Of a stretch of DNA of 64,000 nucleotides, positions 3,016 to 36,141 are shown piece by piece (within the stretch, counting starts at the first letter, position 1; the number at the start of each line of letters is the position of its first letter). The translations under genes were made by a program, and so were the position numbers. The notes beneath the pieces are model-generated. The model did no database searches, was not told where the DNA came from, and saw only the letters and a program-made list of their open reading frames with translations. This stretch comes from a virus: positions 101,485 to 165,484 of IMG/VR virus record IMGVR_UViG_3300036766_001793; one strand, written 5' to 3'.

Positions 3016-3273
3016 TCATGCGGTCGCCGGCTTGGGCACGTTTCCGTACCAGCGCTCTATGACCTCCAGCGGGCGCCAGGCCTCTGCCGGGCACTCGGAG
3101 AACCCTTCCTGGGCCCGCCCGGTGAAGTTCACCCTCCGCTCGAGGCGGGCCGCCTGGAGCTCGGGGTACCTGTCGCAGTATTCGCAGGCCGCCGGCGCGT
3201 GGAGGACCTGCGCGTCGCAGTGCGGGAACGGCGCGTCGGAGTCGAACCCGTCGCGCTCCCTGGTGAATCTCAT
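3016..3273 (-). CDS. Phage hypothetical metal-binding protein (FPHCD...LHAP..CEYCD)
   Basis: AGGAG RBS; Cys/His motif. Confidence 0.75.
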   Translation of the reverse strand: MRFTRERDGFDSDAPFPHCDAQVLHAPAACEYCDRYPELQAARLERRVNFTGRAQEGFSECPAEAWRPLEVIERWYGNVPKPATA

Positions 3274-3294: not shown

Positions 3295-3369
3295 TGGTAC
3301 CTCCGGCGGGATTCGAACCTGCACTTCCTGGATTAAAAGTCCAGTACGCTGCCATTACGTCACAGAGGC
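3295..3369 (-). tRNA. tRNA-Lys(TTT)
   Basis: Loop CTTTTAA, CCA. Confidence 0.93.
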
Positions 3370-3382
3370 ACCTTACACATTC

Positions 3383-3458
3383 TGGAGCGGCCGGCGGGGC
3401 TCGAACCCGCGGTCTCCGCCTTGGCGAGGCGGCGCGCTGCCAGCTGCGCCACGGCCGC
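3383..3458 (-). tRNA. tRNA-Gly(GCC)
   Basis: Loop TCGCCAA (C33), U73, CCA. Confidence 0.9.
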
Positions 3459-3598
3459 GAAGGGGGGGCGCATTGCGCCCCCGGTGGAATCCTACTCCGG
3501 GGACTGGCCCCGTTTCAGATTCGCTATTGCGGGGGACCGCCTGCCCCTTCCCCACGCACTCCGGCCCCCTCACCTGCGGGGCCGGCCCCGGACTTCCT
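3459..3598 (-). ncRNA. Putative structured ncRNA (~140 nt)
   Basis: Several GC hairpins, no credible ORF, between tRNAs. Confidence 0.4.
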
Positions 3599-3675
3599 TG
3601 GTCAGTGAGGAGGGAGTCGAACCCACGGCCTCTTCGTCCCGAACGAAGCGCTCTGCCAGACTGAGCTACACACTG
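3599..3675 (-). tRNA. tRNA-Pro(CGG)
   Basis: Loop TTCGGGA, CCA. Confidence 0.92.
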
Positions 3676-3679
3676 ACAT

Positions 3680-4030
3680 TCTAGGCCGCCACGCGGCTGG
3701 TCACCAATTTTGGTTCGGCCCTCGCCAGGCCCAGCGGCGGTCAAGCCTCTGGCTCTCCCCGGGTCGGGCCTCCCCTCAACGACTGTCGACCGTCCGACCC
3801 GGCCCGGTGACTAGCCGACACCTGGTCCTGACAGCCTCACGTAGCCTAATCGGCAACGCCCGCTTCCCGCGCGCCGGTATGCCCTCTCGCTGGCCTCCGC
3901 CTGGCTGAGGCGCGCGATCGGTCTTGGGAGGGGGCCGACCGCGCCGCGGCGGTCAACCCGCGAGGGCCGGCCCCCTCCCTCGGGGGCGGTGACTGGCCGC
4001 CGTCCTCTCATCAGTCCGATCCTAATACAA
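3680..4030 (-). ncRNA. Putative large structured ncRNA(s) (~350 nt)
   Basis: Long helices (CGGCTAGTCACC/GGTGACCAGCCG; CCGGGTCGG/CCGACCCGG); motifs shared with other spacers; no credible ORF. Confidence 0.55.
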
Positions 4031-4034
4031 CCTT

Positions 4035-4108
4035 TGGTCAGGGAGGAGGGGGACGATCCCTCTCCACGCGGTCCCAAACCGCGAATGCAGCCCCTACACC
4101 ACTCCCTG
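4035..4108 (-). tRNA. tRNA-Pro(TGG), atypical T-loop
   Basis: Loop TTTGGGA; T-loop ATCGTCC; CCA. Confidence 0.82.
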
Positions 4109-4109
4109 G

Positions 4110-4275
4110 TTAGCGTCGCCCAGTCCTACTCCGATATGGCCATCTCTCAAAGAGTACCGAGCTCTCGGTTGGGCCGCCCGCCAGCATCTCCCGGGGGGCG
4201 GTCGTCCCTCAGCGCCTTTCGCCCTCTCCCCGGCGTCGGTGACTGGCCGACACAGGTTACCGAGAGATCATCGCA
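4110..4275 (-). ncRNA. Putative structured ncRNA (~165 nt)
   Basis: CTCTCGGT/ACCGAGAG helix enclosing the recurrent GTCGGCCAGTCACCG motif. Confidence 0.45.
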
Positions 4276-4277
4276 AT

Positions 4278-4354
4278 TGGTCAAGCTGGCGGGGATCGAA
4301 CCCACGGCCTCGTGACCCCCAGTCACGCGCGCTGCCAAACTGCGCCACAGCCTG
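4278..4354 (-). tRNA. tRNA-Pro(GGG)
   Basis: Loop CTGGGGG, CCA. Confidence 0.92.
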
Positions 4355-4355
4355 A

Positions 4356-4526
4356 TGGCCCCGCGGCGCCAGGTTCGCCCCTGCAATCCCCCTCTTCGGG
4401 GGCCGGGGCCCTCCGGCCCTCGGGGCCGGCCTGGCGTGAAGGGAGTTACCGCCCGGCGGGGGGAGCTTGCCTTGCCACCCGCCGGGGGCCCGAGGTGGTC
4501 AGCGGACGGCAAGCCGCCCGCGGGGT
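4356..4526 (-). ncRNA. CCA-terminated non-tRNA structured RNA (~170 nt)
   Basis: 5' CCCCGCGG pairs with 3' CCGCGGGG followed by CCA; internal multi-stem domain. Confidence 0.55.
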
Positions 4527-4529
4527 TTC

Positions 4530-4603
4530 TGGGGTGCAGGACGGGATTCGAACCCGTATCAGCTGGGTCACAGCCGGCCGTTCTGCCCTTGAACTACCCG
4601 CAC
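4530..4603 (-). tRNA. tRNA-His(GTG)
   Basis: Loop CTGTGAC, C73, CCA; no encoded G-1. Confidence 0.9.
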
Positions 4604-4704
4604 ATGGGGCCCCGTTGACTGCGGGCCCATTCCGCGACCGGCACGGAGCTCACACCGGCAGCTTGGCCTGGCCCTCGCGGACGCGTAGGAGGCTCTAAGG
4701 TGGA

Positions 4705-4778
4705 TGGTGGCCTCGAGGGGACTCGAACCCCTTCCTCGTCCTTGAGAGGGACGTGTCCTGCCGTTAGACCACGAGGCC
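4705..4778 (-). tRNA. tRNA-Glu(CTC)
   Basis: Loop CTCTCAA, CCA. Confidence 0.93.
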
Positions 4779-4815
4779 GCGGCCTGAGGCCGCGCTCTCG
4801 GCCTGGCTGGGTGGG

Positions 4816-4890
4816 TGGTGGTCCCGGCGGGGGTCGAACCCGCCCCTGGCGCTTGAAAGGCGCCCGTCCTGACCGCTAGACCACGGGACC
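4816..4890 (-). tRNA. tRNA-Glu(TTC)
   Basis: Loop CTTTCAA, CCA. Confidence 0.93.
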
Positions 4891-4891
4891 G

Positions 4892-5050
4892 TGGCTGCTT
4901 GCCCCCGGGTGAGCCAGTTCTTCGCTGGCGGCCGAGTCGGTACCGGTTTTCCCCGGGCGCAGTGGCCCGCCACTATTCGCGGCGCGGCGACTGGCGGCTC
5001 GTTCGGCCCTCCGACCGGGCCTGGCCGCTACGCTGCGCGCCGCTAGGCGG
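4892..5050 (-). ncRNA. Putative structured ncRNA (~160 nt)
   Basis: Hairpin-rich; shares GAGGGCCGAAC with the 3680-4030 element. Confidence 0.45.
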
Positions 5051-5053
5051 ATG

Positions 5054-5128
5054 TGGTACCCGCGCCGGGAGTCGAACCCGGACCTCAACTTTAGGGGAGT
5101 TGCGTCCTATCCATTGGACCACGTGGGC
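5054..5128 (-). tRNA. tRNA-Arg(CCT)
   Basis: Loop CCCCTAA (C33), CCA. Confidence 0.9.
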
Positions 5129-5135
5129 ATCTGTC

Positions 5136-5282
5136 TGGCGGCGGGGATGGCGCCCCGCCGCGATCTGAAGGTTCCCGCTGAGACCAGCCCCGCGGGAAGT
5201 GACCCCCGGTGACTACTAGCCGGCGGACTATACCCCCCTGGGGCCGTCCTGAACCGCGATCGGAGGGCGCCGCGCGCCCGCC
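5136..5282 (-). ncRNA. CCA-terminated non-tRNA structured RNA (~147 nt)
   Basis: GGCGGG/CCCGCC-G-CCA acceptor-like end; GGCGCCC/GGGCGCC helix. Confidence 0.55.
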
Positions 5283-5287
5283 TTCTC

Positions 5288-5362
5288 TGGTGCCCCAGGA
5301 CGGAATCGAACCGCCTGCTCCCTCCGTGTAGAGGAGGAGCTCTTCCGGTGAGCTACTGGGGC
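5288..5362 (-). tRNA. tRNA-Val(TAC)
   Basis: Loop TCTACAC (C33), A73, CCA. Confidence 0.88.
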
Positions 5363-5422
5363 GAGTCATCCCCCAGATAGTACCGGGGGCGGATTAGGTA
5401 TTCGCGGGGCTCTCCGGCCCCT

Positions 5423-5485
5423 TGGCGGGCCGCCGGGCGGGGCGTAGCCCCGCCGCTGGCTGGTGTGAATCTGCCATAGCGACCC
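5423..5485 (-). ncRNA. Minimal CCA-terminated tRNA-like RNA (~63 nt)
   Basis: 7-bp GGGTCGC/GCGGCCC + G + CCA; GGCGGGG-CTACG-CCCCGCC hairpin; no anticodon arm. Confidence 0.5.
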
Positions 5486-5498
5486 CTTTCGGCTTGAT

Positions 5499-5573
5499 TG
5501 GCAGGAGCGGCGGGAATCGAACCCGCATCTTCAGTTTTGGAGACTGGCGCCCTAGCCTTTGGACGACGCACCT
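5499..5573 (-). tRNA. tRNA-Trp(CCA)
   Basis: Loop CTCCAAA, G73, CCA. Confidence 0.92.
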
Positions 5574-5587
5574 ACTGCCTGAATGAC

Positions 5588-5593
5588 AGGATA
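5588..5593 (-). promoter_or_regulatory. Putative -10 box (GG-TATCCT) for the tRNA array
   Basis: TAnnnT hexamer 15 nt upstream of the first tRNA; same pattern as other promoters in the window. Confidence 0.5.
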
Positions 5594-5633
5594 CCGCGCC
5601 GGCCGCGGCTTGTACACCCCGCCCGGGCGCTTT

Positions 5634-6071
5634 TCAGTGTTTCCCCAGCCGCTCGAGGAATGAGATGAAGCGCCCGTTGGTCAGGGCCCCGGGCCTCCTG
5701 GACCTCATGTACCTGATGAGCTCCGGCCCGGATCTGCCCGTCAGCTTGTGGACGGCCATCGCGTTGACGAGGGAGGACCTGTTCAGGCCGGCCGCGCAGT
5801 GGACCAGCACGCGCCCGCCGGACGACACGGCGGAGCACACCCTGGAGACCACCTCGTCGAGGTCCTCGCGGTCCGGGAGTGGCCCGTCCTCTATCTGCCA
5901 CCTGAGCTCTGTGAACGGCCCGCGGCCGCCGCCGCCGGAGAACGGTGGGTCCCCGTTGAGGTTCACCACGTAGTCTATGCCGAGGTCGAGGACCTCGCCC
6001 TCGCCCTCCCGGCCCTGGACAGACCCGGACTGCCAGAGCCTGCCGGGGATGATCTCATAGAGCTCGGTCAT
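5634..6071 (-). CDS. Dual-specificity / protein-tyrosine phosphatase family
   Basis: VLVHCAAGLNRS (HCX5R) and an IEDG acid loop. Confidence 0.92.
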   Translation of the reverse strand: MTELYEIIPGRLWQSGSVQGREGEGEVLDLGIDYVVNLNGDPPFSGGGGRGPFTELRWQIEDGPLPDREDLDEVVSRVCSAVSSGGRVLVHCAAGLNRSSLVNAMAVHKLTGRSGPELIRYMRSRRPGALTNGRFISFLERLGKH

Positions 6072-13093: not shown

Positions 13094-13120
13094 GCAACCA
13101 TGGTACCGGGCGTCAGAAGA

Positions 13121-15703
13121 TCACTCGTGGTCCATGTATATGGGATACACCGCCTCGACGAGGCGCTTGCCGCTCGAGATGATGACGGTCTGGGTCGGCC
13201 TGGAGGCCTTCCCGTAGGCCCTCAGGTACCAGTTGCTCCCGCCGTCGAGGGTGCCGTTCTGGATGACCGGCACCCCGTTGACCTCGAGCATCGAGAACTC
13301 GTGCCTGTGCCCGAGGAGGAGCAGCTCGGGCCTCGCCCCGAAGATGTCCGCGAGCGTCCACTGGGGGAGCAGCTCCCGGATCTTGATCAAGGGACCATGC
13401 CACTGGTCCCCATGCATCGCCACCACCTGATGGCCGCACACGCTGAACCTGGACCACCAGTTCTCCTCGATGTGCCAGTTGATGTTGTCCTGGAGCTGGG
13501 CCTTGTCCCTGGCCCACATGCAGGCGAGCGAGTCGAAGTTGTCCTCCGGGTCGGCGAAGTCGTTCTTTCCGTTGGCCCTCCCGTGGTTCCCCGGGACGGA
13601 GTAGACGTCGACCCCCTTCACATACGAGGCCAAATCCATCGCGACCCCGGCCTGGAGGTCAGCGGTCACCATGATCTGCTTTGTGAGACGGTGGGAATTG
13701 CCAGACCGATCAAGCCCAGTTATATTTTGACCGGCATAGATGAAGCAGTTGTGTCCGACGAGCCCATTGGCTGTGTAATTCTCCAGACCTTCCACCGTCA
13801 GATTGTACACGGGTTCCGCCAGGCTGGACTTGCTAACCTCCAGCACCTTCGTATACCTGGTCCCAGCAAGGGGGGCAATCCAGCCCTTCAGGTCCGTCCT
13901 GTATTCTGGTCTCCTTCTCGGCTGTGTTCTCTGCCCTGCCGAGAATCTCTCCTGATACCTAGGGTCGTGCGACCCTATCTCGCAATTGAGGCTGGGGGCT
14001 CCGAGTGTGAGAGTATAAAGGTCCCTCTCTATTATCCTTCCGGTGGGCAGCTTTGTCCTCCCTGGCCGGTAGTGCACCTCTGTAGCCACCAACCCTAGCC
14101 CGTCGCAAAGGTGCCGGATGTCCTCCATCAGCTGTCCGTTAACGGACCCGAACACTACGACGCCATCCTTTGTCACGTGTCCGTCCGAGTCGATGTACCC
14201 CCGGAGGAAGGCCGCCCTCAGGTCCCTCCTAAGCCCGAACACCCAGCCTGGCACCCGCTTCTCGCGGGCCCTGCCTCCAAGGCCGAGGTCCAGTATCATC
14301 TGGGCCGCCGCGGTTGACCCGAAACGGGCCATTCCGTCAGACCAGGCTGAGAACTTCACCGGATCCCCGTTCGCCTTGAAGAAGACCTTCTCGGCACCCT
14401 CGAGATATCGGGCGATCCACTGAACCGCATTCTCCGCGAAGGCGATGCACACCACGTTCGGTTTCCCATCCCTGCCGCGTCCGAGGCACCCGTCGCCAAG
14501 GTAGAGCCCCAGGAATTCCATGAGCTCCACGGAAGCATCGGTCCCCAGCGGGGTAGCGGCGTTCCCGCCGTCCGAGAATCTTTCCACCATCGCCACCAGG
14601 TCGCCAGGTTGCACCTCTCCTGCGCGTACGTAATTCAGGGTTACCTCGTACCGGTGCCGGTTCCGATACGAAGACCCAGACACCTCTGTGCGGCGCATGA
14701 CCAAGAAGGGATGCTCGCCGTTCGCCCTAACCGTCCTGTCCCTGGTCCTGATTGTGTAGAGTGGGTCAATTCCAGTCATGGCCGCCGCGGATACTATAGC
14801 CCTCTCAAATCCCTCCCGACCGAGGGCCCATACTTCATCACCAGCGATGAAACTCTCTATCGGCTTCGGACCGTCTGGCGTGTCCACCAAGGTGCCGGCT
14901 GGGAGGCAGCCTTCTAGCATGTCTCCGGCGAACACCAGGTGGGCCCTATCCACCGAGTAGCCGGAGTCCCGGTACTGCTTCACGATTTCGTAGGTGGCCG
15001 CCATGAGCCTCGGGACGCGCTGCTCCACGACGGCCCTCACACCGATGCCATTCTCCATTTTGCCTACCTGCCAATCCGAGCACAGGACGATGACCTCCCG
15101 CGCCCCCTTCGGCTTGTCGACGTCCCCCGGTCCCGGTTGCCTTCGCTCCGGGAGCAGCCACCGATTCTCCGTCAGGACCTTATTCACCTGGTACCTGAGG
15201 AACTCGCGCTGCGAGGTGAGCTGCTGCACCTTGCGCTGGAGGCGGTTCTTTTGGCCGAACGCCCTCGCGGCCATCTCCGTGCCGCTGGCCTCCGGGTAGA
15301 GGGATCCCTCCTCTGCGAGGATCTCCTCCTTCGTCCAGAGGCGCTCCGACCGCCTGCAGTCTGGGTGGTGATACCAGTGGCCGTCGTTCACAGGGGTGAA
15401 CCGCTCTATGCAGTCGCGGTTCATGCAGCGGCGCCTGACCGCGAAGGGAAGGCCCTCGCCGTCGTCATCCCAGAAGTCGCCCACTGGCGCCGAAGGTTCG
15501 GCAGCCTGGCGGACTTCTCCGCTTTTCCGGTAACGATCGGCCCGGAGGCCCCTCATGTTCATCCTCTTGGCGATGCTGTCGTACTTTACGACCCCGTCGA
15601 ACCCGTGCCGGCGAAGGACCTCCTGGGCGGCCTTCCCGCCGCCCGACGGGTACACCAGGCTGATCTCCTCCCAGACGCCGTCCGGAATAAGGCTGCGAGC
15701 CAC
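13121..15703 (-). CDS. Calcineurin-like metallophosphoesterase with an intein
   Basis: SDWQ, GDMLEG, GNHG, MHGD, GHRH motifs; interrupted after GDMLEG. Confidence 0.88.
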   Translation of the reverse strand: MARSLIPDGVWEEISLVYPSGGGKAAQEVLRRHGFDGVVKYDSIAKRMNMRGLRADRYRKSGEVRQAAEPSAPVGDFWDDDGEGLPFAVRRRCMNRDCIERFTPVNDGHWYHHPDCRRSERLWTKEEILAEEGSLYPEASGTEMAARAFGQKNRLQRKVQQLTSQREFLRYQVNKVLTENRWLLPERRQPGPGDVDKPKGAREVIVLCSDWQVGKMENGIGVRAVVEQRVPRLMAATYEIVKQYRDSGYSVDRAHLVFAGDMLEGCLPAGTLVDTPDGPKPIESFIAGDEVWALGREGFERAIVSAAAMTGIDPLYTIRTRDRTVRANGEHPFLVMRRTEVSGSSYRNRHRYEVTLNYVRAGEVQPGDLVAMVERFSDGGNAATPLGTDASVELMEFLGLYLGDGCLGRGRDGKPNVVCIAFAENAVQWIARYLEGAEKVFFKANGDPVKFSAWSDGMARFGSTAAAQMILDLGLGGRAREKRVPGWVFGLRRDLRAAFLRGYIDSDGHVTKDGVVVFGSVNGQLMEDIRHLCDGLGLVATEVHYRPGRTKLPTGRIIERDLYTLTLGAPSLNCEIGSHDPRYQERFSAGQRTQPRRRPEYRTDLKGWIAPLAGTRYTKVLEVSKSSLAEPVYNLTVEGLENYTANGLVGHNCFIYAGQNITGLDRSGNSHRLTKQIMVTADLQAGVAMDLASYVKGVDVYSVPGNHGRANGKNDFADPEDNFDSLACMWARDKAQLQDNINWHIEENWWSRFSVCGHQVVAMHGDQWHGPLIKIRELLPQWTLADIFGARPELLLLGHRHEFSMLEVNGVPVIQNGTLDGGSNWYLRAYGKASRPTQTVIISSGKRLVEAVYPIYMDHE
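13748..14908 (-). mobile_element. Intein with LAGLIDADG endonuclease (387 aa)
   Basis: CLPAGT...ANGEHPF...FLGLYLGDG...FLRGYIDSDG...VGHN/C. Confidence 0.93.
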
Positions 15704-20059: not shown

Positions 20060-21646
20060 CTACTTCAGCGGGCGCTGGGCGTAGGCGGCCCCCTTGTACA
20101 CATTGGCCGAGCTCGGGACGACCACGGGATCTGAAGACCAGCGACCCATGCTCGGGTTGCGCTCGCCCGGACTCAGGGACGGGTGGTCGTTCCGAGCAGG
20201 GTCTTCATCGAGCCCAGCCGCAAACTCGGAGAAGATGTCCTCGGCGACGACCATGGCCGCCTGCTTGGCGACGTCTGGGTCCTCGTGCGGGTTAGTCCTC
20301 ATGAACAGGTCTGCGAGCGGGTCCACGAGGTCGTAGGCGTCGTCGTGGCTGAGGTCTCCCGCCCTGGCGGACCTGGCCCACTCCCGCTTGAACTGGCCCT
20401 GCAGCCGCCCTCCCGCCGGATCGTTGTCCGCCATGTCTCGCATGCGCTCGCCGTAGTCGTCGGCCGTGGCCTCACTCTCCTCCCTCGACCTCTGCGGCCT
20501 GCGGACCTTCAGCGACTGGACCTCCTCCACGTCCTTGGGGTGGAGCTGCCCGCCGCTGTCCGTGACGAACCGGCCGCCGCGCGGCCCCTGCTGGACGTTG
20601 GTCCCCTGCGGCGGCTGCTCGTCCGGCCTCAGGTAGCGGACGTCTTCGGCCGCCTTCTCCTCCCGGCGCTCGGCCGGCCAGTGACCCGTGCCCTCGTGCT
20701 CGGCCCAGGCGCAGAAGGCGTGCGGGTCGTCGACTGTGCCGCCGACGTGCTCCATGCACTTCGAGTGCGGCCCCTTCGAGACCGACTCCCAGAACTTCCT
20801 GGACGAGCCCCTGCCCCATCCCTTCGGCTTGCCGGCCTTGTTGGCGACCTCGCCGCTGGTCACGCTGCCGGAGTAGGGGCCCTCCGTCTCCGGGTGCTCT
20901 ATGTCGTGCGCCACCGACCCGTAGGCCGGGCGGGCCATCGACCCGTGGATCCCGTCGTCCTCCGGCTCGTCGGCCGGGTAGGACGGCTCGCCGACCGCCT
21001 TCAGGATCGAGTCGCTGACCATGACGACCGCGTCGAGGGACCAGGAGACTGAGCTCTCGAGCTCTTCGTCTGGGTCCACCTCTGGGCCCCTGGCCTTCGC
21101 GAGCCCCTCGCCCTTGAACGTCTTCCCGCTGCGGAGGGACGCCGTCTGGGTCAGGAGGTTGCTGCCGCTCGGCCTCCGCGGCGCCGGTTGGGCCGGCGGG
21201 GCCTTCGGCTTGAGGCTGAAGGTGTGCCCCTGGACGTCGGCGCCCTCGAGCATGTCGTCCCCGAGGATGCGTCGCGCGTCCGTCTCCCTGGTGGCCTGGA
21301 TCTCCTGCAGCCTCCCGCGGAGCTCCTGGATGCGCCTCATCTCCGGCGGGTTGCACTCGCCCTTCCTGGCCTTGTCGTACAGGTCCTTGTACTCGTCGAT
21401 GATCTTGTCTTCCTCGCCGTGCATCGGGTCGGCCGAGGCCTTCCTGTGCCTGAGGGTGACCGGGTGCTCCTCCGGATGGCCGAAATGGCGGTGGGTCAGC
21501 ACCTTCCGATCTGGGCCGGTCTCCGCGACGTGAACCGGCCTCTGCGTATAGGAGGCCTCCACCGCCGGCACCGGGCCGAGCGGGGCTTGGGTCCCGACGG
21601 ACATCCCCTGCTTGTTGACGACTGACTGGCCTACGGCGATAGTCAT
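20060..21646 (-). CDS. GPRGG-motif protein 5 (multi-segment, putative virion internal protein)
   Basis: EEKAAEDVRYLRPDEQPPQGTNVQQGPRGGRFV; many xxK(A/G) sites; C..H...DDPHAFCAW module. Confidence 0.8.
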   Translation of the reverse strand: MTIAVGQSVVNKQGMSVGTQAPLGPVPAVEASYTQRPVHVAETGPDRKVLTHRHFGHPEEHPVTLRHRKASADPMHGEEDKIIDEYKDLYDKARKGECNPPEMRRIQELRGRLQEIQATRETDARRILGDDMLEGADVQGHTFSLKPKAPPAQPAPRRPSGSNLLTQTASLRSGKTFKGEGLAKARGPEVDPDEELESSVSWSLDAVVMVSDSILKAVGEPSYPADEPEDDGIHGSMARPAYGSVAHDIEHPETEGPYSGSVTSGEVANKAGKPKGWGRGSSRKFWESVSKGPHSKCMEHVGGTVDDPHAFCAWAEHEGTGHWPAERREEKAAEDVRYLRPDEQPPQGTNVQQGPRGGRFVTDSGGQLHPKDVEEVQSLKVRRPQRSREESEATADDYGERMRDMADNDPAGGRLQGQFKREWARSARAGDLSHDDAYDLVDPLADLFMRTNPHEDPDVAKQAAMVVAEDIFSEFAAGLDEDPARNDHPSLSPGERNPSMGRWSSDPVVVPSSANVYKGAAYAQRPLK

Positions 21647-21888
21647 GACCTGGTTATCTCCCTGAGGGTGACTGGCCTCAGGCCCCCGCGGGGCTGCGGG
21701 TCAGCGCGCAGATCCCAGTTTACCCTGCGCCTCCTGATCTGGGGGACCCTGGAGACCGGGGCCGTGGCCATCATGAGGAGCTGGAACCACCTCACCCTGA
21801 TCGTGCACCTGGAGCACTTCTCGACCCCGAGCAGCTTGGCCGGGACCCAGAGCACCGCGGTAAGCAGGCGGTCGACGAGATCTACCAA
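21643..21888 (-). CDS. Small hypothetical protein
   Basis: Overlapping start/stop with neighbours. Confidence 0.55.
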   Translation of the reverse strand: MVDLVDRLLTAVLWVPAKLLGVEKCSRCTIRVRWFQLLMMATAPVSRVPQIRRRRVNWDLRADPQPRGGLRPVTLREITRS

Positions 21889-25482: not shown

Positions 25483-25845
25483 CTATACTGTACCCTGAAG
25501 ACCATCCCTCCCAATCTCCGTCGGCCCCACCCCCATTCGTTCAGCCCTCTCCCTCGCCGCATTTTCCCGCCACTTGGTCTCCTGCTCTGCGTTAAGTCTG
25601 TTCATCCTGTCCCACGGATCCTCGTCTATGTAAAGAGTGAAGCACACACAGCAAACGTGCTCTCCGTCCAGGGTCCCGCCGTACATGCCGGAGTGCGGGA
25701 CGAAGCAAACGACCCCGTCCTCCCTAAGGAATAGCGAGCCTACCTCGGCGGGTCCGAGCTCGGCGGGCCACGCGTCTTGACGGCTCCTGCACATCTCGCA
25801 GATCGCTCGCGGGAGCTCGACCGGGTAGCGGCACTTCTTCTTCAT
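25483..25845 (-). CDS. Cys-rich hypothetical protein
   Basis: MKKKCRY start coupled to the Pnk stop. Confidence 0.6.
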   Translation of the reverse strand: MKKKCRYPVELPRAICEMCRSRQDAWPAELGPAEVGSLFLREDGVVCFVPHSGMYGGTLDGEHVCCVCFTLYIDEDPWDRMNRLNAEQETKWRENAARERAERMGVGPTEIGRDGLQGTV

Positions 25846-26741
25846 TAGAAGTTGCCCTCGGCGACCTGGAGGCAGGTCAGCCCGAGCGACCGCCAGAGCT
25901 CTACCACCTGGTTGCGGTCGTCTAGGACGAAGTGGACGTTGAACTTCCCCCTCACGTGGGCGTCGAAGAGCTCTGCCTTGACCACAGCGTCCTTCCTGCT
26001 GTCCCCGCCCTTCCTCATGTGGAGCTCGTAGTGGTGCCCGAAGTGCTTCTCCAGGAAGTCGACGGTCTGCCGCCGATAGAGGTCCTCGCGGCCCGACATG
26101 AAGATGATGTCTGGCGCGGCCGCACACAGAAGCGACTCCAGAAGGAGGAGGACCGGCGCGTTTGGGGTGTCGAGGTGGGCCGTGGCCGCGTTGTACGGGC
26201 TGCGGTGGTTCAGGCCGCATCCGCACCCGTGCCGCTGGCAGAAGAGCGCCACGGTCCCGTCCAAGTCGCATAGCACGGCCCAGGGGAGCCCGGGGGTCTC
26301 TCTGTACGGCTCCAGCTCCCATGGGGTGCCGATGAACCGCCTGGCCATGTCCCTGATGACCGCCTCGCCGACTGGCCTCGCCCGGCGGGAGTCCCTGGCG
26401 ATCGCCTCCTCCACCTCCACGTCGAAGCGCTTCACCTCGACCCGCGCCCCGAACGGCCTCGCGATCTCGTACATCCTGCGGATGTGCTTGTCCTCGAAGT
26501 TCGTGTCGTCCACGATGGCGCTCTTCCCGTCGACGAGGGCATCGGCCACGAGGCGGTCCCTCTCGGGGATCACCACCTCGCGCTCCTTGTGCTTGCTCCA
26601 CCCAGTTGGGAGGAGCCGCTCGCGGATGTCGTCCTTGTTCACGCGCACCCAAGCGCCGGGGTCGCTGGCCACCAGCCCCCTCGCGAAGGTGGACTTCCCG
26701 CTCGCCGGGAGCCCCTGGAGCACGAGTATCGTCTGGGTCAT
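25845..26741 (-). CDS. pseT: Polynucleotide 5'-kinase/3'-phosphatase (T4 PseT-like)
   Basis: GLPASGKST P-loop, DLDGT HAD motif, SGR, DDR. Confidence 0.95.
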   Translation of the reverse strand: MTQTILVLQGLPASGKSTFARGLVASDPGAWVRVNKDDIRERLLPTGWSKHKEREVVIPERDRLVADALVDGKSAIVDDTNFEDKHIRRMYEIARPFGARVEVKRFDVEVEEAIARDSRRARPVGEAVIRDMARRFIGTPWELEPYRETPGLPWAVLCDLDGTVALFCQRHGCGCGLNHRSPYNAATAHLDTPNAPVLLLLESLLCAAAPDIIFMSGREDLYRRQTVDFLEKHFGHHYELHMRKGGDSRKDAVVKAELFDAHVRGKFNVHFVLDDRNQVVELWRSLGLTCLQVAEGNF

Positions 26742-27430
26742 GTGAAGAACCGCCTCCGCACCTTGATGATGAAGTCGTTGACCGGCTGGTAGTCCGTCCT
26801 CTTGCCGCCGTTATCGGCGTAGGCTCGGTCCAGCTGGACCTCTTGGGAGCCGCAAATGCTCTCAACCTCCCGGAGGTCGAACGTGGATTTGTCGTCCCGC
26901 CACGCCAGGAGGGTGGGCTCGATTGCGGTGCCCACGACGCTGAGCTCGAAGTCGCCGGTCTCGAGGAGCCGGCGAGCATTGTAGAGCGTCCGCAGCCACG
27001 CCATCGCGTACTTCCGCCCTTTCGCCTCAGTCCCCTCGAACATCCTGCGCCTCTGGGACTGCCCGTATCCCCTGAAGGCCTGGTAGACCCTCTCGCTGCT
27101 CCAGACGTGGGGGAACAGCGAGACCATCTCCCTGCCGAGCCCCGTCGTGCCGGCCAGCTGCGGGGCCCTCATGACCTCGAGAATGCTGGGGTTGCTCTTC
27201 GTCGCGAGGTGCAGGAAGTGTCCGACCTCGAACTCCGCGGAGTCGGCGGCGGGCTCCGCCTGCCCCAGCGGCCGCGACGCTTTGGGGGTCCGGTACTCGG
27301 CCTGGCTGCCGAGGACGAAGAACTGGGCCGTGTCTGTGACGTAGACCGCTTTCAGGTCAGTGTCAGAGTCCGGCCTCTCGAGCCCATGCGCCCGGCTGCC
27401 CACGAGGGCGTTGAGTATGGTGTGCCTCAT
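26738..27430 (-). CDS. Pol-beta superfamily nucleotidyltransferase (YcgL/RlaP-like)
   Basis: GSRAHGL..PDSDTD, K.NP.ILE. Confidence 0.88.
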   Translation of the reverse strand: MRHTILNALVGSRAHGLERPDSDTDLKAVYVTDTAQFFVLGSQAEYRTPKASRPLGQAEPAADSAEFEVGHFLHLATKSNPSILEVMRAPQLAGTTGLGREMVSLFPHVWSSERVYQAFRGYGQSQRRRMFEGTEAKGRKYAMAWLRTLYNARRLLETGDFELSVVGTAIEPTLLAWRDDKSTFDLREVESICGSQEVQLDRAYADNGGKRTDYQPVNDFIIKVRRRFFT

Positions 27431-28590
27431 TCTTTCCCCTCGTCATCGAACATTTCCAGTTCCCCGAATGGCCTGGTGGCCTTCGGCCTGACCCTCGCCC
27501 ACAGCCTGTCCCGCGGGGTGGCCCCGACGGTCCGGTAGTCCTTCCCGTCAAGCATCCCCATCGCGAGGTCGAACTCGGCCGAGTTCGCCTTCATCCACCT
27601 CGCCAGCTCACCGCGATTCCCACGCCCGACGGCGGCGAGCCCGTCCCCGAGGGACCCCTCGGCGGCCGCGAGCTTCTCCTCCACGGCGGCCGTCAGGCCG
27701 GCGACTATGCCCTGCGCCCACGAGTAGTACTCGTCCGGCGTGTTGTCCATGAACCGCCAGACCTCGCCCTCGCCCTGGTGCCTGATGATGTCCCAGACCG
27801 TCCTGGCGGTGAGTTCCGTGATAGCCCGGTGGAGCCTCACGTAATCGTCGAACTTCACCTTCAGCCTGAGGCCGGGCCCGGTGTACCTGAGGACGAAGCC
27901 CTCCTTGTTGGGGGCCTCCAGCAGCTTGAGGTCGAGCGGGTTGTCGGTGGACGCCAGGGTCGCGAAGAACTCGGGGACGTCCGGCCAGACGGACGCGTCC
28001 GGCGGGACGTCCCATCCCTGGTCCGTGTGGACGGACCCGAGGTAGACGAGGCGCTCCTCGCGGCCGTAGTCCACCACGACCCGGTTCTCCGGGTAGACGA
28101 TCTCGAATAGGTGCGTGAAGTCGTGGGCGAGCCCGTCCAGGCGCGCCGCGTACCTGGGCTCGCGTATCATCTCGGAGGCCCTGAGGGCCTGGTCGGACGC
28201 GAACGACCCGCGGGTCGCTATCCACGGCTCCCCCTGGTCGTCGCGGTACAGGATCCCAAGAGACCCGTCCACCTTCTCCCAGACCTCGTACGGGCCGTCC
28301 GGCAGGGGCCCGTGGTGCTCCTCGAAGTTGAAGAACTTCACGAAGGGCCTGGCGACCACCCGTCCCCCGGGGCGCGTGATGAGCCCGCGGGACATCAAGA
28401 TCTCCCTCGTCCACAGCCTCTCGAACTGGGCCTTCTGGGTGTAGTTCCAAATGAGGAGGCTCGAGGTCGGGTGCTCGTTGCAGGAGAGGTACCCATCGGC
28501 CTCGAGCCGCCTCATCTCCGCCATGTCGACTTCCCCGGCCTCCGCCGATCTGGCCAGCCCGGCCTCTTCCTTGGTCCGCATCTTCGCCAT
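27427..28590 (-). CDS. rnlA: RNA ligase 1 (T4 RnlA family)
   Basis: RPFVKFFN, EKVDGS (motif I), TRGSF, FEIV, EGFV, KVK. Confidence 0.93.
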   Translation of the reverse strand: MAKMRTKEEAGLARSAEAGEVDMAEMRRLEADGYLSCNEHPTSSLLIWNYTQKAQFERLWTREILMSRGLITRPGGRVVARPFVKFFNFEEHHGPLPDGPYEVWEKVDGSLGILYRDDQGEPWIATRGSFASDQALRASEMIREPRYAARLDGLAHDFTHLFEIVYPENRVVVDYGREERLVYLGSVHTDQGWDVPPDASVWPDVPEFFATLASTDNPLDLKLLEAPNKEGFVLRYTGPGLRLKVKFDDYVRLHRAITELTARTVWDIIRHQGEGEVWRFMDNTPDEYYSWAQGIVAGLTAAVEEKLAAAEGSLGDGLAAVGRGNRGELARWMKANSAEFDLAMGMLDGKDYRTVGATPRDRLWARVRPKATRPFGELEMFDDEGKE

Positions 28591-28594
28591 GGGC

Positions 28595-29035
28595 TTATGA
28601 TACCTCATCAGTACAACTTTGTACACCCAAGGCCCAGGAGACGTACTTCATGAGCTCCTTGTCGGTCGCGCCCTCGGCCAGGTCGCCCCTGATGAACGTG
28701 TTGTAGCTGTCAGCCGCGTACTTGCCCACGCCCGGGAGCTCCCGCACATCCTGGCTGGGCAGCCAGTCCAGGAACGCCCGGCTCATCCTGATTATCAGCC
28801 CCGACCTGCGGTTCTGGAGGCCGAGGGACTGGAGCATCGCCGCCATCTCCCCCTGGGGGGCGGAGGCCGCCTGCTCGGGCTCGGGCCACGTGGCGAAGAA
28901 GGTCCATATGACCGGCCTGACCTGCCTGATGCTCGTCTGGTTGAGGCACATGCATGCGACCAGAAGCCTCCAGGGCTCCCACCTCAGGTCCTCCTGGATC
29001 AGGCCCAGCGGGGAGCGGCGCGTCGGGGTGTCCAC
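28595..29035 (-). CDS. HhH-GPD DNA glycosylase, MBD4-catalytic-domain-like
   Basis: RSPLGLIQE...PWRLLVAC..LNQT...LPGVGKYAADSY..F...DKEL.KY..W. Confidence 0.88.
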   Translation of the reverse strand: MDTPTRRSPLGLIQEDLRWEPWRLLVACMCLNQTSIRQVRPVIWTFFATWPEPEQAASAPQGEMAAMLQSLGLQNRRSGLIIRMSRAFLDWLPSQDVRELPGVGKYAADSYNTFIRGDLAEGATDKELMKYVSWALGVQSCTDEVS

Positions 29036-29051
29036 GCGGGTATGGTACCGG

Positions 29052-30025: not shown

Positions 30026-30642
30026 CACGTCCCGCCCAGGGAGGACAGGTCGGCCCTCCACTGCCTGAGGTCCGGCAGCGCGTCCCCGACGTGCGGGGCG
30101 TCCCAGTCCCTCAGGAACGCGGAGAGCATGCCCTCGACCTCGTCTATCAGCCCTGGGGCGAAGTCCGGGTCGTCCGCCAGGACGCAGCGGTAGATCGGCC
30201 TCATCGCCTGCCTCATGGTCATCGGCGCCCCGGTCACCTCGTTGTCGAACGCCCACACTCCGCCGTCCCGCCCCAGCCCCCAGTTGTTGGCGTGGCGGTC
30301 GCGGTTCCTCATGACGAGGTCCAGGCACGCCATGGCGGCGAGGCCGCGCAGGGCGCGCCCGGTGGCCCTCACCGACCTGAGCAGCCGCTCGCCAGCCAGG
30401 TGGGCCGTCGTGCCGTCCACCATCTCCTGCGCCGTGCCGTGCCGCCCCACGACGACCGTCCGCGGGACCACCCCGCCGAAGTACCTCTCCGACAGCGCGT
30501 ACGCGAACGCCTCGTCCGGGCCACGGCGGAGGACCCACCGCCCGCCGCCGGCGTCCACCGCCACGAGGTGGCCCGACCTGCCGGGGGCCATCTCCCCCGG
30601 GAGCGGCGGTCTCACCTCGACGAACGCGACGTCACGTCCCAT
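30025..30642 (-). CDS. PI3/4-kinase/HipA-like kinase-fold protein
   Basis: EAFAYAL...VP.T...LDLVMRNRDRHANNW...WAFDNE. Confidence 0.75.
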   Translation of the reverse strand: MGRDVAFVEVRPPLPGEMAPGRSGHLVAVDAGGGRWVLRRGPDEAFAYALSERYFGGVVPRTVVVGRHGTAQEMVDGTTAHLAGERLLRSVRATGRALRGLAAMACLDLVMRNRDRHANNWGLGRDGGVWAFDNEVTGAPMTMRQAMRPIYRCVLADDPDFAPGLIDEVEGMLSAFLRDWDAPHVGDALPDLRQWRADLSSLGGT

Positions 30643-33600
30643 AGGGGCCCGGGATCTCGGCCGCCCCCTCGGCCGCCTCCGCCCGCCCGCGGGCCGGCCG
30701 CCTCGGGTCCTGCTCCGGCGGCAGCGGCTGCTCCACCCCCTGGCCGAGCTTGGCCGCCCTCTGCTGGTCCGGCATCGCCCCGCCGCCCGGCCCGCCGAAC
30801 CCGCCGCCCCCGAACGGGCTGGCCCCGTCGGCCTGCGCCTTCTGCTGCTCCTCCGCGGAGAGCACGCGGCCGTGGAAGCTGAACTCGTCCGTCTCGGAGT
30901 CCCACTCCACCCCGAACCCCATGCCGGCGAACGTCTGGGCGACGGAGGCCTTGGCCTGGGTGATCTGGATCTCGACCAGCTCGCTGGTCTCCTCGGGGGT
31001 CCTGATCTTGAGGTGCCAGTCGCCTATCTTGAGCGCCCTCTGGAGCTTCGGGAATACGTCAGTGTGGTACGACCGCTGTGCGCCCTCAACTACACGCGAC
31101 ATCACTGTGAGCTGCTGGCTGTTGGAGAGGACCACGCCCCCGATGCCACCGACGAACAGGTGGCTCTCGTCCGCCACCTCTATGTCGTAGACGAAGTCGT
31201 GCCAGTCCTCCTGGACGTGCACGCCGCGCACCTCCTCCCTCTCGATGCGCCTGGGCATGACCCGGCCGGCCTCCTCGCCGAGCAGGGTCTCCACCCCATA
31301 GAAGTGCGAGTGGCGCGGGCTGGCGCTCGGGAGAAAGTTGGCCCTGGTCGCCGTCCCGGTGGCCCAGTAGAGGTACTGGAGCCCGGCGGCGAGGGGGAAG
31401 TCCACCGACCCCTGGGTGACGGTCCCGTTGGGGGTTGTGTGCCCGTCCCCGGCCACATACCCGTCCAGGTAGGACCTCATAACGTCCTTCCCGGCGTTCA
31501 GCACGAGGTGGGGCACCTTCTTGTAGCACTTCTTCTGGTCTGTCCTACGGGACCGCCCGAGCTCTGGATCATGCACCCCATAAGAGACCCTGTAACTGGA
31601 CGTGGCGTTGGCCGTGAACCACCCGGCCAGTTCCTTGCTCTGGACCTCTATCGATGCGGACCTCTTGACGCCCTTGCGCTCCCGCCAGTACACCTTCGGC
31701 ACGGTCCCGAACGCCCGCCTGATCCTGGCCTCCGCCGCCCTGACCAGCCCCTCGTCAGTGTTGGACCAGCACACCCTAGTGGCGCTGGCGTAGCCCTCAG
31801 CCCCGAAGAACCCGAGCAGCCACGCCAGGTCCTCTGTCATCGACACAGATCCCGTGGCTTCTGGCAGCACGAGGGACAGCCTGTCCCCGTCCTTTATCTC
31901 GTCTGCGGCCACCTTCTCGCCGTTCACGACCACCGAGTGGTTGCCTGTCACCCTCAGCAGGGCGTCGCCAGCCCTCACCGTGAACATTGGCTTGTCCGTC
32001 ATGTGCCTGAACACCTTGTTTATGGCAGACCACCCGTTTGGGGTGAGCGCCTCCACCGTCTCAAGCCTTCGATTGGATCCGTTGTGCAGCCATGCTATGG
32101 GCACACAATCAATGAACTCCTTATCGTACCTGACCCAGACCGGAGTATCACCGGGGATGCTCTCGTTGTTTAGCCCACCTATCCCCTCGGTGGAGTTATG
32201 GAGAAGCACGCCGCCTATGCCACCGGCGAACGTGCCGTCCTCAGTCTCGAGATCGTATACCCAGGCGCCCGTTTTATGAACGGACTTGCTCACCGTCTTG
32301 ACCTCGTTGATTGCCTTCTTCCTGACGGTCAGGATCTCCTGGAGCTTCCAGCTCCTTGCGTCCTTCGTCATCTGCGGGCCGCCCTTGCCCCGGCGCTTGT
32401 CCTGGATGTAGAGGACGGACACCTCCATGCCGATGGCCCTGAACAGGTAGTCCACGCCGGCCATGAGGGTCGGGTGCGCCCCGACCACGGCGCGCTGGCC
32501 GAGCGGGGTGACCGAGCCGTCTCCGGCCATGAAGCCGTCCACGAAGGCCCTCATCACACCAGTGCTCCCGTTGAGCACGGCCTTGGGAACCCTCCTCACC
32601 GTGATCTCCCTCATGCTCCCCGGGGCGTCCCCGGTCAGGAACGTGGTGAACAGCTCCCTCTCGAGCTCCTGGGCAACGTCCCCGTAGGCCCTAACCCTCA
32701 GCCCGTCGTCGCGCGTCGCCCGCTGGTAGGCTGACTCGAAGCACCGGGCGAACTCCGCCCTATGGCCGTCGTCTCGGCAGGTCGCCTCGACCAGGTTCTT
32801 CCCAGGGCGGATGACAGTCCCCTCGGCCGCGTAGAATCCGAGGGCCCACGCTTTCTCCGCAGTCATGGTCGCGAGAGACGGCGAATCCGGGAGGTCTGCC
32901 AGCTCTATCAGGTCGCCTGGGCTGAGGTCGCCAGCGCTAATCTCACGGCCGCCCTCGTCGAACAGAGAATGGTTGGCGGTCACTTCGATCGAGGACCCGC
33001 CAGTGGTGACGACCACCACGTCCTCCTGAGCTCGGTGGGCGAACACCTTGGTGATCGGCCGCCATCCGCTCCTGGTGAGGGCCTCGATAATACCGTTCTT
33101 GAGCCCGTCGACGAGAGGAGGCTTGGCCATCATGTCCCCCCCGCGATCTGGGTGGGTGACCGAGTACAGGCTCCCGATGGGGACGAGGTCGATGAACCTG
33201 CCCTCCTTGCGCACCCACACCGGAGCGTCCGGCGGGAGGCTCTGCATCCAGATCTGCGACACCCCGTAGATGCCGGAGATGCGCTCCCGTATCTCGTCCC
33301 TGACCGGCAGGTAGTCGAGCTCGTCGAGGGAGTACGCGAACCGCACGAACTCCATGCGCCCCTGGCCGCTCTTGGAGGCGATCGCCATCCAGGGGATGTA
33401 GTGCGGGTCCTGCTGCATGCGGGCCTCGACCTCGTTCTTCGTCGCGTTGAAGGCCGCCGTGTCGTCCGTCACCACGGTGACGACGCCCTGCGGGACCTTG
33501 CGCTCGTAGAAGTAGTCGTAGAGGTACCGGTCCATGCCGATGAGGGTCATGGCCTTCTCGTAGATGCTCAGGACCGGCGGGAAGCCGTAGGTCTCCGTAT

Positions 33601-35812: not shown

Positions 35813-35814
35813 CT

Positions 35815-36141
35815 CTACCCCTCTATCCTGGCGAGGATGCCGTCGGACGCCATGATGAGGCACTTGCGCTCGCCGCTCGGGCTGTCGTCCGCGAACGCCC
35901 ACCGGCCCCCCTGCCACTCCGCGAAGACGACCCGGTCACCCTCTCGGATGCCCACCATCTCGGCGAGGTCTGGAGCCGCCCTCAGCACAGTCCCGGTCTT
36001 CGTGTTCCCTGCCCGGGGGACGACGATGCCCGCGGAGGAGGGCCGCTCCAGGTCCTCCTCCACCGCGACGTAGTCCGCGGTGAGCCTCAGCGCCGAGAAC
36101 TGCTCCTCGACCCTGGTGTAGCCGGCCAGCTTAATCGCCAT
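35815..36141 (-). CDS. GroES-like co-chaperonin (paralog 2)
   Basis: DYVAV...SSAGIVVP...GTV...GDRVVF.EW.G...ILA. Confidence 0.88.
   Translation of the reverse strand: MAIKLAGYTRVEEQFSALRLTADYVAVEEDLERPSSAGIVVPRAGNTKTGTVLRAAPDLAEMVGIREGDRVVFAEWQGGRWAFADDSPSGERKCLIMASDGILARIEG

Follow-up and report, generated by a model that had tools for sequence, protein, structure and literature searches.

What is encoded, if anything, in the long stretches that separate the tRNA genes of a large phage? The question is raised by a window of 64 kb, positions 101485–165484 and the final part of the 165,484-bp virus record IMGVR_UViG_3300036766_001793 (GC content 68%). An earlier reading of this DNA, made without database searches (hereafter the sequence-only reading), had noticed motifs shared among several tRNA spacers and had proposed either a new class of structured RNA, in the manner of GOLLD and ROOL, or repeated protein-binding or processing sites. 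In our analysis, the object is a small hairpin-headed repeat, undescribed and partly lineage-specific, together with one strongly conserved, promoter-adjacent non-coding element. Literature searches found no description of the motif. Unless stated otherwise, all coordinates below are those of the window.

The record was identified as a phage from its hallmark genes (terminase, DnaB-like helicase, family-A polymerase, ribonucleotide reductase, polynucleotide kinase, and Rnl1-like RNA ligase). No close relative was found in GenBank, where the top match to the polymerase was only 30–37% identical, and the majority of the phage proteins matched no family. ARAGORN identified 42 tRNA genes in the record, 41 of which form a single array at 95.1–107.1 kb, all on the minus strand; 19 genes of this array fall within the window. 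Across the record, 150 of the 205 open reading frames (ORFs) called from the GC content at third codon positions (GC3) are on the minus strand as well. The sequence-only reading had described its motifs on the plus strand, and the coordinates were right, but all of the tRNAs and nearly all genes lie on the other strand. Because the tRNAs are all encoded on the minus strand, the spacers have to be read on it.

The repetition of the motif is real. Exact copies of the 13-mer CGGTGACTRGCCG are present on the plus strand at 3805, 3987, and 4237, as had been claimed; the copies at 3805 and 4237 do agree at 16 of 17 nt, and the variant at 5207 is present. When up to one mismatch was allowed, the count was above chance, with three matches against 0.37 expected, a number reached by none of 100 shuffled sequences. 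Strand-specific k-mers of the ten spacers between 3459 and 5633 were also compared with the rest of the genome, and the minus-strand core of the motif, AGTCACC, was the top enriched 7-mer of the spacers (four observed, 0.05 expected, p = 2e-7); it has nine copies genome-wide. The second motif that had been proposed, GTTCGGCCCTC, is present at both of its positions, 3713 and 5001, but its recurrence is not above chance, as the five matches found with up to one mismatch compare with 3.4 expected and were equalled by 27 of 100 shuffles. Repeated 11-mers are common at the GC content of this phage (73 in the 12-kb array), and the shared short motifs mostly reflect that high GC content.

On the minus strand, the motif forms a hairpin the size of an anticodon arm, with a stem of 5–7 bp and the loop C(C/U)AGUCA. 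Three copies belong to paralogous modules of about 80 nt each, designated A, B, and C, which flank tRNA-Pro(TGG). These modules and the other features on which the argument turns are as follows.

3599–3675, minus strand: tRNA-Pro(CGG), called by ARAGORN, part of the frame in which the modules lie
3713–3723, with a second copy at 5001–5011, plus strand: GTTCGGCCCTC, the complement of the 3' arm of a small GGCC hairpin plus GAAC, at chance level
3748–3832, minus strand: module B, in the second half of the 359-nt spacer (profile hit and alignment with module C)
3925–4010, minus strand: module A, in the first half of the 359-nt spacer (profile hit)
4035–4108, minus strand: tRNA-Pro(TGG), called by ARAGORN, part of the same frame
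4180–4262, minus strand: module C, in the spacer between tRNA-Pro(GGG) and tRNA-Pro(TGG) (profile hit at 4181–4261)
4254–4261, minus strand: extended -10-like box GGTAACCT in module C, a putative promoter element
4278–4354, minus strand: tRNA-Pro(GGG), called by ARAGORN, part of the same frame
4607–4628, minus strand: 6-bp hairpin with a 10-nt loop containing CAGUCA, just upstream of tRNA-His
5129–5262, minus strand: non-coding element of about 130 nt in the spacer between tRNA-Val and tRNA-Arg (the Val-Arg element)
21661–21682, minus strand: hairpin with a perfect 7-bp stem and the loop CCAGUCAC, in the 5' untranslated region (UTR) of gene 20060–21646

In module A, the hairpin (3985–4001) presents the 7-nt loop CCAGUCA on a stem of 5 bp, and that of module C (4233–4253), which stands at the head of the module, has a 7-bp stem and the loop CCAGUCA as well; in module B, the motif core (3805–3817) places the loop CUAGUCA on a weak stem of 3–4 bp. 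Counted from the open end, the second pair of the stem differs between A (G-C) and C (U-A), which is a compensatory double change, and one pair in the stem of C, a G-U on the minus strand, would be mismatched as C-A on the plus strand. The paralogy extends beyond the hairpins, as B can be aligned with C across about 68 nt (z = 9.3 compared with dinucleotide shuffles), A and C have 30 nt in common at 87% identity, and an nhmmer profile of the three modules found exactly these three places genome-wide (E values of 4e-17 to 3e-9) and nothing else. The paralogous family that had been proposed is thus genuine but local, with no member beyond the three copies. Module A starts 33 nt past the CCA end of tRNA-Pro(TGG) and module C starts 24 nt past tRNA-Pro(GGG), and the linkers ahead of both are AU-rich for this genome.

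A search of the genome for minus-strand hairpins with a stem of at least 5 bp and an AGTCA loop resulted in seven, of which five lie in a 2.3-kb part of the array and one in a 5' UTR. This last hairpin, at 21661–21682, is located between two minus-strand genes, and its 3' arm extends into the ribosome-binding site of gene 20060–21646; the sequence of its stem is unrelated to those of the stems in the array. No such hairpin was found upstream of the homologue of this gene in L002, one of the relatives described next, and a search with the encoded protein gave no family or fold lead. The hairpin at 4607–4628 is also found in another relative, L045.

With a dual-specificity phosphatase gene immediately upstream of the array as the anchor, five independent relatives were retrieved, L002 from IMG/VR and L039, L041–L044, and L045 from ENA and Logan assemblies. 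The last three come from ERZ27247773 (L039), SRR15709922 and its sister runs (L041–L044), and SRR17089432 (L045). Their phosphatases are 51% (L002), 67% (L039), 63% (L041–L044), and 62% (L045) identical to that of the window phage, and they have in common the gene order phosphatase, Trp, Val, Arg(CCT), Glu, Glu, His, Pro, Pro, Pro; the order of the three tRNA-Pro genes is the same in L039 and L002. In comparison with L039, the Trp-Val, Arg-Glu, and His-Pro(GGG) spacers are 61–66% identical (z of 5–6), and the two Pro spacers that hold the modules are unalignable (z of 0.2 and 2.2). The Pro(TGG)-Pro(CGG) spacer has 359 nt in the window phage, 138 nt in L039, and 5 nt in L002, and the Arg-Glu spacer has lengths of 163, 157, 157, and 3 nt across the clade. 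The loop motif was found in none of the Pro spacers of the relatives, and modules A, B, and C are missing from L039, L045, and L002. Since the modules are missing from syntenic spacers, they are lineage-specific, and the three tRNA-Pro genes are older than the divergence of these phages, so that the modules are later additions in the lineage of the window phage.

Several further observations concern these spacers and the tRNAs beside them. In L002, an extra tRNA-like gene, called as Met(CAT), is located between tRNA-Pro(GGG) and tRNA-Pro(TGG) at the place of module C (L002:11945–12022), and the 3' end of the spacer in the window phage bears a faint, non-significant likeness to the T arm of this gene. 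The window phage's tRNA-Pro(TGG) (4035–4108, minus strand), although called by ARAGORN, was missed by the Rfam tRNA model even at E ≤ 10; it has an aberrant T arm and the lowest identity of the tRNAs to L039 (62%). Directly behind tRNA-His, a tetraloop hairpin of 8 bp (4490–4529, minus strand) is invariant in the window phage, L039, and L045, and the ACCA that follows it occurs in the window phage only and not in the relatives. The Trp-Val spacer (5363–5498, minus strand) is conserved nearly whole in the five relatives and contains, in every phage, a Shine-Dalgarno-like purine run, an AUG, and an open frame of 23–33 codons. Its substitutions fall at codon positions 1 and 2 and not at position 3, and a G-C pair of one internal hairpin is replaced by A-U in a compensatory change, a pattern that looks like constraint on RNA or DNA rather than on a peptide.

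The motif variant at 5207 is a different case. The Val-Arg element comprises a -10 box (5227–5234), the motif variant (5206–5223), and a 70-nt core (5165–5234), and it ends in a GC hairpin about 10 nt before tRNA-Arg(CCT). It is present in the window phage, L039, L041–L044, and L045, and only recognisable patches of it are left in L002. Across four lineages the core keeps 90–93% identity, with 63–65 of its 70 nt shared with L039, L042, L043, and L045, whereas third codon positions of the neighbouring phosphatase gene are 59–64% identical and the tRNAs, compared with L039, 62–91%; the core is therefore more constrained than the tRNA genes that surround it. When the conservation of the spacers was examined, this element was the only one found to be deeply conserved, and the 359-nt spacer could not be aligned with its counterparts. 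None of the open frames of the Val-Arg element has a start codon. RNAalifold predicted a long irregular hairpin plus the terminal GC hairpin, with a compensatory change at one pair only. Following the element, the Val-Arg spacers of the relatives hold one or two more conserved modules, which are missing from the window phage (L039:6117–6279, L043:1063–1131, and L045:1597–1667). Spacers in this clade are built of modules that come and go.

Wider scans returned little of the same kind. A scan of IMG/VR with a degenerate pattern of the Val-Arg element resulted in four chance matches plus L002, and a scan of Joint Genome Institute (JGI) metagenomes with a 20-mer of the element gave chance matches only, one of them in a coding helix-turn-helix gene. 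Homologues of the small ORF at 3019–3273 were found in unrelated contexts without tRNAs, and the distant phosphatase homologues P0009 and P0012 are not beside tRNA arrays. A look-up of sequencing runs that contain the stretch itself gave two DNA runs of sediment metagenomes, one of which is probably its source, and no RNA run. The IMG/VR scan for the hairpin gave at least 119 single matches, most of which are due to chance or to one coding locus of a phage family of about 40 kb; among these at least 119 matches, one adjoins a tRNA. This hairpin, whose 5-bp stem is perfect and whose loop is CUAGUCA, is located 5 nt upstream of tRNA-Thr(TGT) (reverse strand, about 2033–2049) in an unrelated phage contig of 35% GC (L127, IMGVR_UViG_3300045988_139612), and it may be a coincidence.

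The position of the motif relative to promoters was examined with an extended -10 motif, GGTANNNT, which on the minus strand occurs at 1.45/kb in intergenic and 0.38/kb in coding sequence, a fourfold difference in density. It often stands 7 nt before start codons, which implies many leaderless mRNAs and a host transcription machinery of actinobacterial type, and further copies stand in a repeated early-gene module and, at a distance of 14 nt, ahead of tRNA-Trp and tRNA-Val (example sites on the minus strand are 5588–5595, 5377–5384, 13100–13107, and 29042–29049). The boxes before tRNA-Trp and tRNA-Val are kept in the relatives. Neither sigma-70 consensus promoters in the array region nor U-tract intrinsic terminators in 3300–5700 were found. 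The motif variant of the Val-Arg element comes directly after such an extended -10 box. Both this element and module C have a G ahead of the loop motif and the box exactly 6 nt in front of that G, and in the Val-Arg element this spacing is free of insertions and deletions in four lineages; the predicted transcription starts are G5220 and G4247, respectively. Modules A and B and the 5' UTR copy have no adjoining -10 box.

We consider the motif to be, with a probability of roughly 45%, a cis-acting RNA recognition or processing signal that is ancestral in the Val-Arg element and was recently copied to the Pro spacers and to one 5' UTR. According to this proposal, the minus-strand motif in the array transcript would fold into a hairpin of anticodon-arm size that displays the loop C(C/U)AGUCA on differing stems. 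One related copy would belong to the Val-Arg element, a promoter-proximal sequence that is old and under strong constraint; in the lineage of the window phage, the motif would have been copied three times, together with the roughly 70 nt that follow it, into the two spacers on either side of tRNA-Pro(TGG), and the hairpin alone would also have been set against the ribosome-binding site of one protein gene. A sequence-specific RNA-binding factor, possibly a phage or host protein or a ribonuclease, would read the displayed loop and mark sites of cutting or protection on the long pre-tRNA transcript, and at the 5' UTR it would control access to the ribosome-binding site. The same loop on unrelated stems, the compensatory difference between A and C, the G-U pair that is valid on the minus strand only, and the copy that partly covers a ribosome-binding site all point to an RNA hairpin that is read at its loop. 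The sequence-only reading's own alternative of repeated protein-binding or processing sites fits this picture, in which a short, strand-biased hairpin with a kept loop and differing stems occurs in spacers and in one 5' UTR. Its other proposal, a new class of modular RNA in the manner of GOLLD or ROOL, finds no support in the data.

One comparison is with boxB of the lambda nut sites, a short hairpin with a 5-bp stem that is bound by the N protein and whose loop is the recognition feature. Like boxB, the phage motif is a short hairpin with few copies per genome, near promoters or between genes and oriented with transcription; its loop is conserved on varied stems. Unlike boxB, it has a predicted transcription start inside the hairpin at two copies and a loop of 7 nt with an unrelated sequence, and neither a boxA nor an N-like protein was identified here, no candidate having been searched for.

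Several observations weigh against the cis-acting RNA signal. No candidate binding protein was identified, and the energies of the hairpins are ordinary for the GC content of this phage (z of -0.5 to -1.8). If the boxes at 5227–5234 and 4254–4261 fire, transcription would start inside the hairpins and yield transcripts without the 5' arm. The absence of A, B, and C from L039, L045, and L002 means that the modules are dispensable for the phage clade. In the Val-Arg element, the 4-bp stem of the motif is broken by one-sided changes in L039, L041/L043, and L045, which argues that sequence rather than pairing matters there. A bolder version of the proposal, in which the Val-Arg element is a previously undescribed promoter-proximal regulatory RNA and the copies of its motif C(C/U)AGUCA in other spacers and in a 5' UTR form a phage-specific RNA regulon read by one factor, appears quite unlikely to us. 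In the most unusual variant of this version, the hairpins would be anticodon-arm mimics whose tRNA-Thr-like loop (C32 C33 N G U N A) engages a tRNA-binding enzyme or nuclease.

The 13 bp could instead act as DNA, as a promoter-proximal site such as an operator, an initial transcribed region, or a stoperator-like roadblock recognised by a DNA-binding regulator, with the inverted repeats being secondary. We regard this as unlikely. The fixed spacing to the -10 box and the unmaintained stem of the Val-Arg element, where sequence is kept and the stem is not, argue for a promoter-proximal sequence element; the box itself is concentrated between genes and ahead of start codons and tRNAs, and every copy of the motif has one orientation relative to transcription. 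A DNA site does not account as readily for three of the five copies (A, B, and 21661–21682), which lack an adjoining box, nor for arms that differ in sequence and yet remain complementary, which a double-stranded site does not need, nor for the pair in C that is valid only as minus-strand RNA; the core is also asymmetric. Stoperators of Cluster A mycobacteriophages are asymmetric 13-bp repressor sites. They resemble the motif described here in being asymmetric and of about 13 bp, in their promoter and intergenic locations and single orientation, and in the actinobacterial type of the promoters; they differ from it in that only five copies are found here, clustered in a tRNA array and provided with complementary flanking arms, in a phage that has no known repressor and does not look temperate.

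Modules A, B, and C could also be remnants, without function, of recent local duplications in spacer DNA that evolves fast, with function in the Val-Arg element only, an explanation to which we likewise give a low probability. Consistent with it, the modules are confined to about 500 nt (3748–4262) and missing from the relatives, spacer lengths vary freely in the clade, most of the stem of B has been lost, and the overall fold is not exceptional. Neutral leftovers would not be expected to include the unlinked copy at 21661–21682, which has a loop identical to those of A and C on a perfect, unrelated 7-bp stem; we estimate the chance of an intergenic 11-mer match with such a stem at about 5e-5. 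The compensatory double change between the stems of A and C also speaks against drift after duplication.

It is improbable, in our judgement, that the modules are independent small RNA genes or decoys of an anticodon arm acting in trans, whether as seed-bearing small RNAs or as mimics of the tRNA-Thr anticodon arm that titrate a tRNA-binding enzyme or a nuclease. The hairpins of A and C do have the exact geometry of an anticodon arm (5 bp and 7 nt), and their loop differs from the loops of the phage tRNA-Thr(CGU) and tRNA-Thr(UGU) only at positions 34 and 37, with the same C32-C33 start. The commitment of the phage to tRNA biology is considerable (41 tRNAs, a polynucleotide kinase, and an Rnl1-like ligase), and the Val-Arg element has a -10 box and a terminal hairpin like a small gene. 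Against this stand position 37, which is C, unlike any Thr tRNA, the copies with loops of 8 and 10 nt, which misfit the geometry, and the lack of an acceptor stem, a CCA end, detectable terminators, a Ro60-like partner, and conservation of A, B, and C; such a loop is in addition open to many after-the-fact readings. The operator of E. coli thrS is an anticodon-arm mimic bound by threonyl-tRNA synthetase (ThrRS) beside the ribosome-binding site. It shares with the phage hairpins the anticodon-arm shape, the G35-U36-like loop positions, and, for one phage copy, the contact with a ribosome-binding site; since the downstream gene of the phage is not a synthetase and position 37 is C, this is a resemblance only. 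The tRNA cluster of phage T4 encodes small stable RNAs (species 1 and 2, rnaC/rnaD) that are ORF-free, structured, and co-transcribed with the tRNAs, and A, B, and C are similar to them as non-tRNA, ORF-free segments between phage tRNA genes. The T4 RNAs differ in having tRNA-like acceptor ends and tRNA-like maturation, in contrast to A, B, and C, which have no acceptor stem, CCA end, or conservation. Among known systems, the T4 stable RNAs, boxB, and stoperators appear to be nearest in kind, and by comparison each fails at least one defining feature.

The remaining explanation, that the 359-nt spacer is one large ornate RNA related or analogous to GOLLD, ROOL, raiA, or Y RNA, is effectively excluded and already contradicted, since a spacer that is long, GC-rich, and ORF-free and that folds better than shuffled sequences (z = -2.7) nonetheless has no Rfam match at any threshold tried, folds equally well or better on the plus strand, and cannot be aligned with the short spacers that take its place in L039 and L002. 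The stretch had been described as about 350 nt of nested helices with no credible ORF. Its length is 359 nt (3676–4034), it has no coding-type GC3 signal, and no ORF within 3370–5633 shows the coding signature of GC3 > 0.8 with low GC content at second codon positions. As for the helices, folding is somewhat better than in shuffles (z of -2.7 on the minus and -3.3 on the plus strand), but it is so on both strands, which points to inverted repeats at the DNA level rather than to a single strand-specific architecture.

Covariance-model searches against GOLLD, ROOL, raiA, and Y RNA matched no family, and no Rfam family other than tRNA matched at the gathering threshold or at E ≤ 10, short inputs included; the best Rfam hit of the spacers has E = 0.64, all hits score far below gathering, and only tRNA genes pass. 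GOLLD and ROOL are the subject of a cryo-electron microscopy paper of 2025 (PMC12286853). These families are alike to the spacers in being non-coding RNAs able to adjoin phage tRNA genes, and they differ in that size, conservation, covariance-model match, and the TROVE/Ro60 partner all fail here. Y RNA of the YrlA type was rejected because the genome has no Ro60/TROVE gene (PF05731 is absent from the 165-kb record, control genomes being positive). An HDV-like (theta-type) ribozyme was rejected at 16.9 bits against a gathering score of 50 (E = 2, plus strand, antisense to the array). Neither ARAGORN nor Rfam called a tRNA or cloverleaf in the spacers, and local and semi-global alignments to all 42 ARAGORN tRNAs of the genome and to the extra L002 tRNA-like gene stayed within the shuffled range, so that an origin from decayed tRNAs was rejected as well. 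Three further ideas were inspected by eye and dropped because the copies did not agree: hammerhead-like cores, a pseudoknot formed by the loop with sequence downstream of it, and antisense pairing in which the loop would bind start regions.

Three side observations concern the genome as a whole. The polynucleotide kinase and the Rnl1-like RNA ligase, the classic tRNA-repair pair of phages, are encoded at 25845–26741 and 27427–28626 (minus strand). Three large minus-strand genes, for an exonuclease, a 1761-aa protein, and the large terminase, contain intein or homing-endonuclease (LAGLIDADG or HNH) insertions (13121–15703, 30632–35917, and 36678–39200). A sequence of ~26 bases at the very end of the record reappears about 40 nt from its start (positions 1–70 and 165440–165484 of the record), which suggests a circularly permuted or nearly complete genome, though the record is classed as linear.

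Large phages carry near-complete sets of tRNAs, and to our knowledge almost nothing is known about how their tRNA arrays are transcribed, cut, and regulated. The 7-nt loop motif, which is displayed on six hairpins, five of them with exact copies and one with a related loop, provides a testable handle on this question. Even if no factor reads the loop, the first reading is corrected, in that the long spacer is not a conserved ornate RNA. If a factor does read it, the motif would represent a new phage RNA-protein recognition pair that controls the supply of tRNAs and one protein gene.

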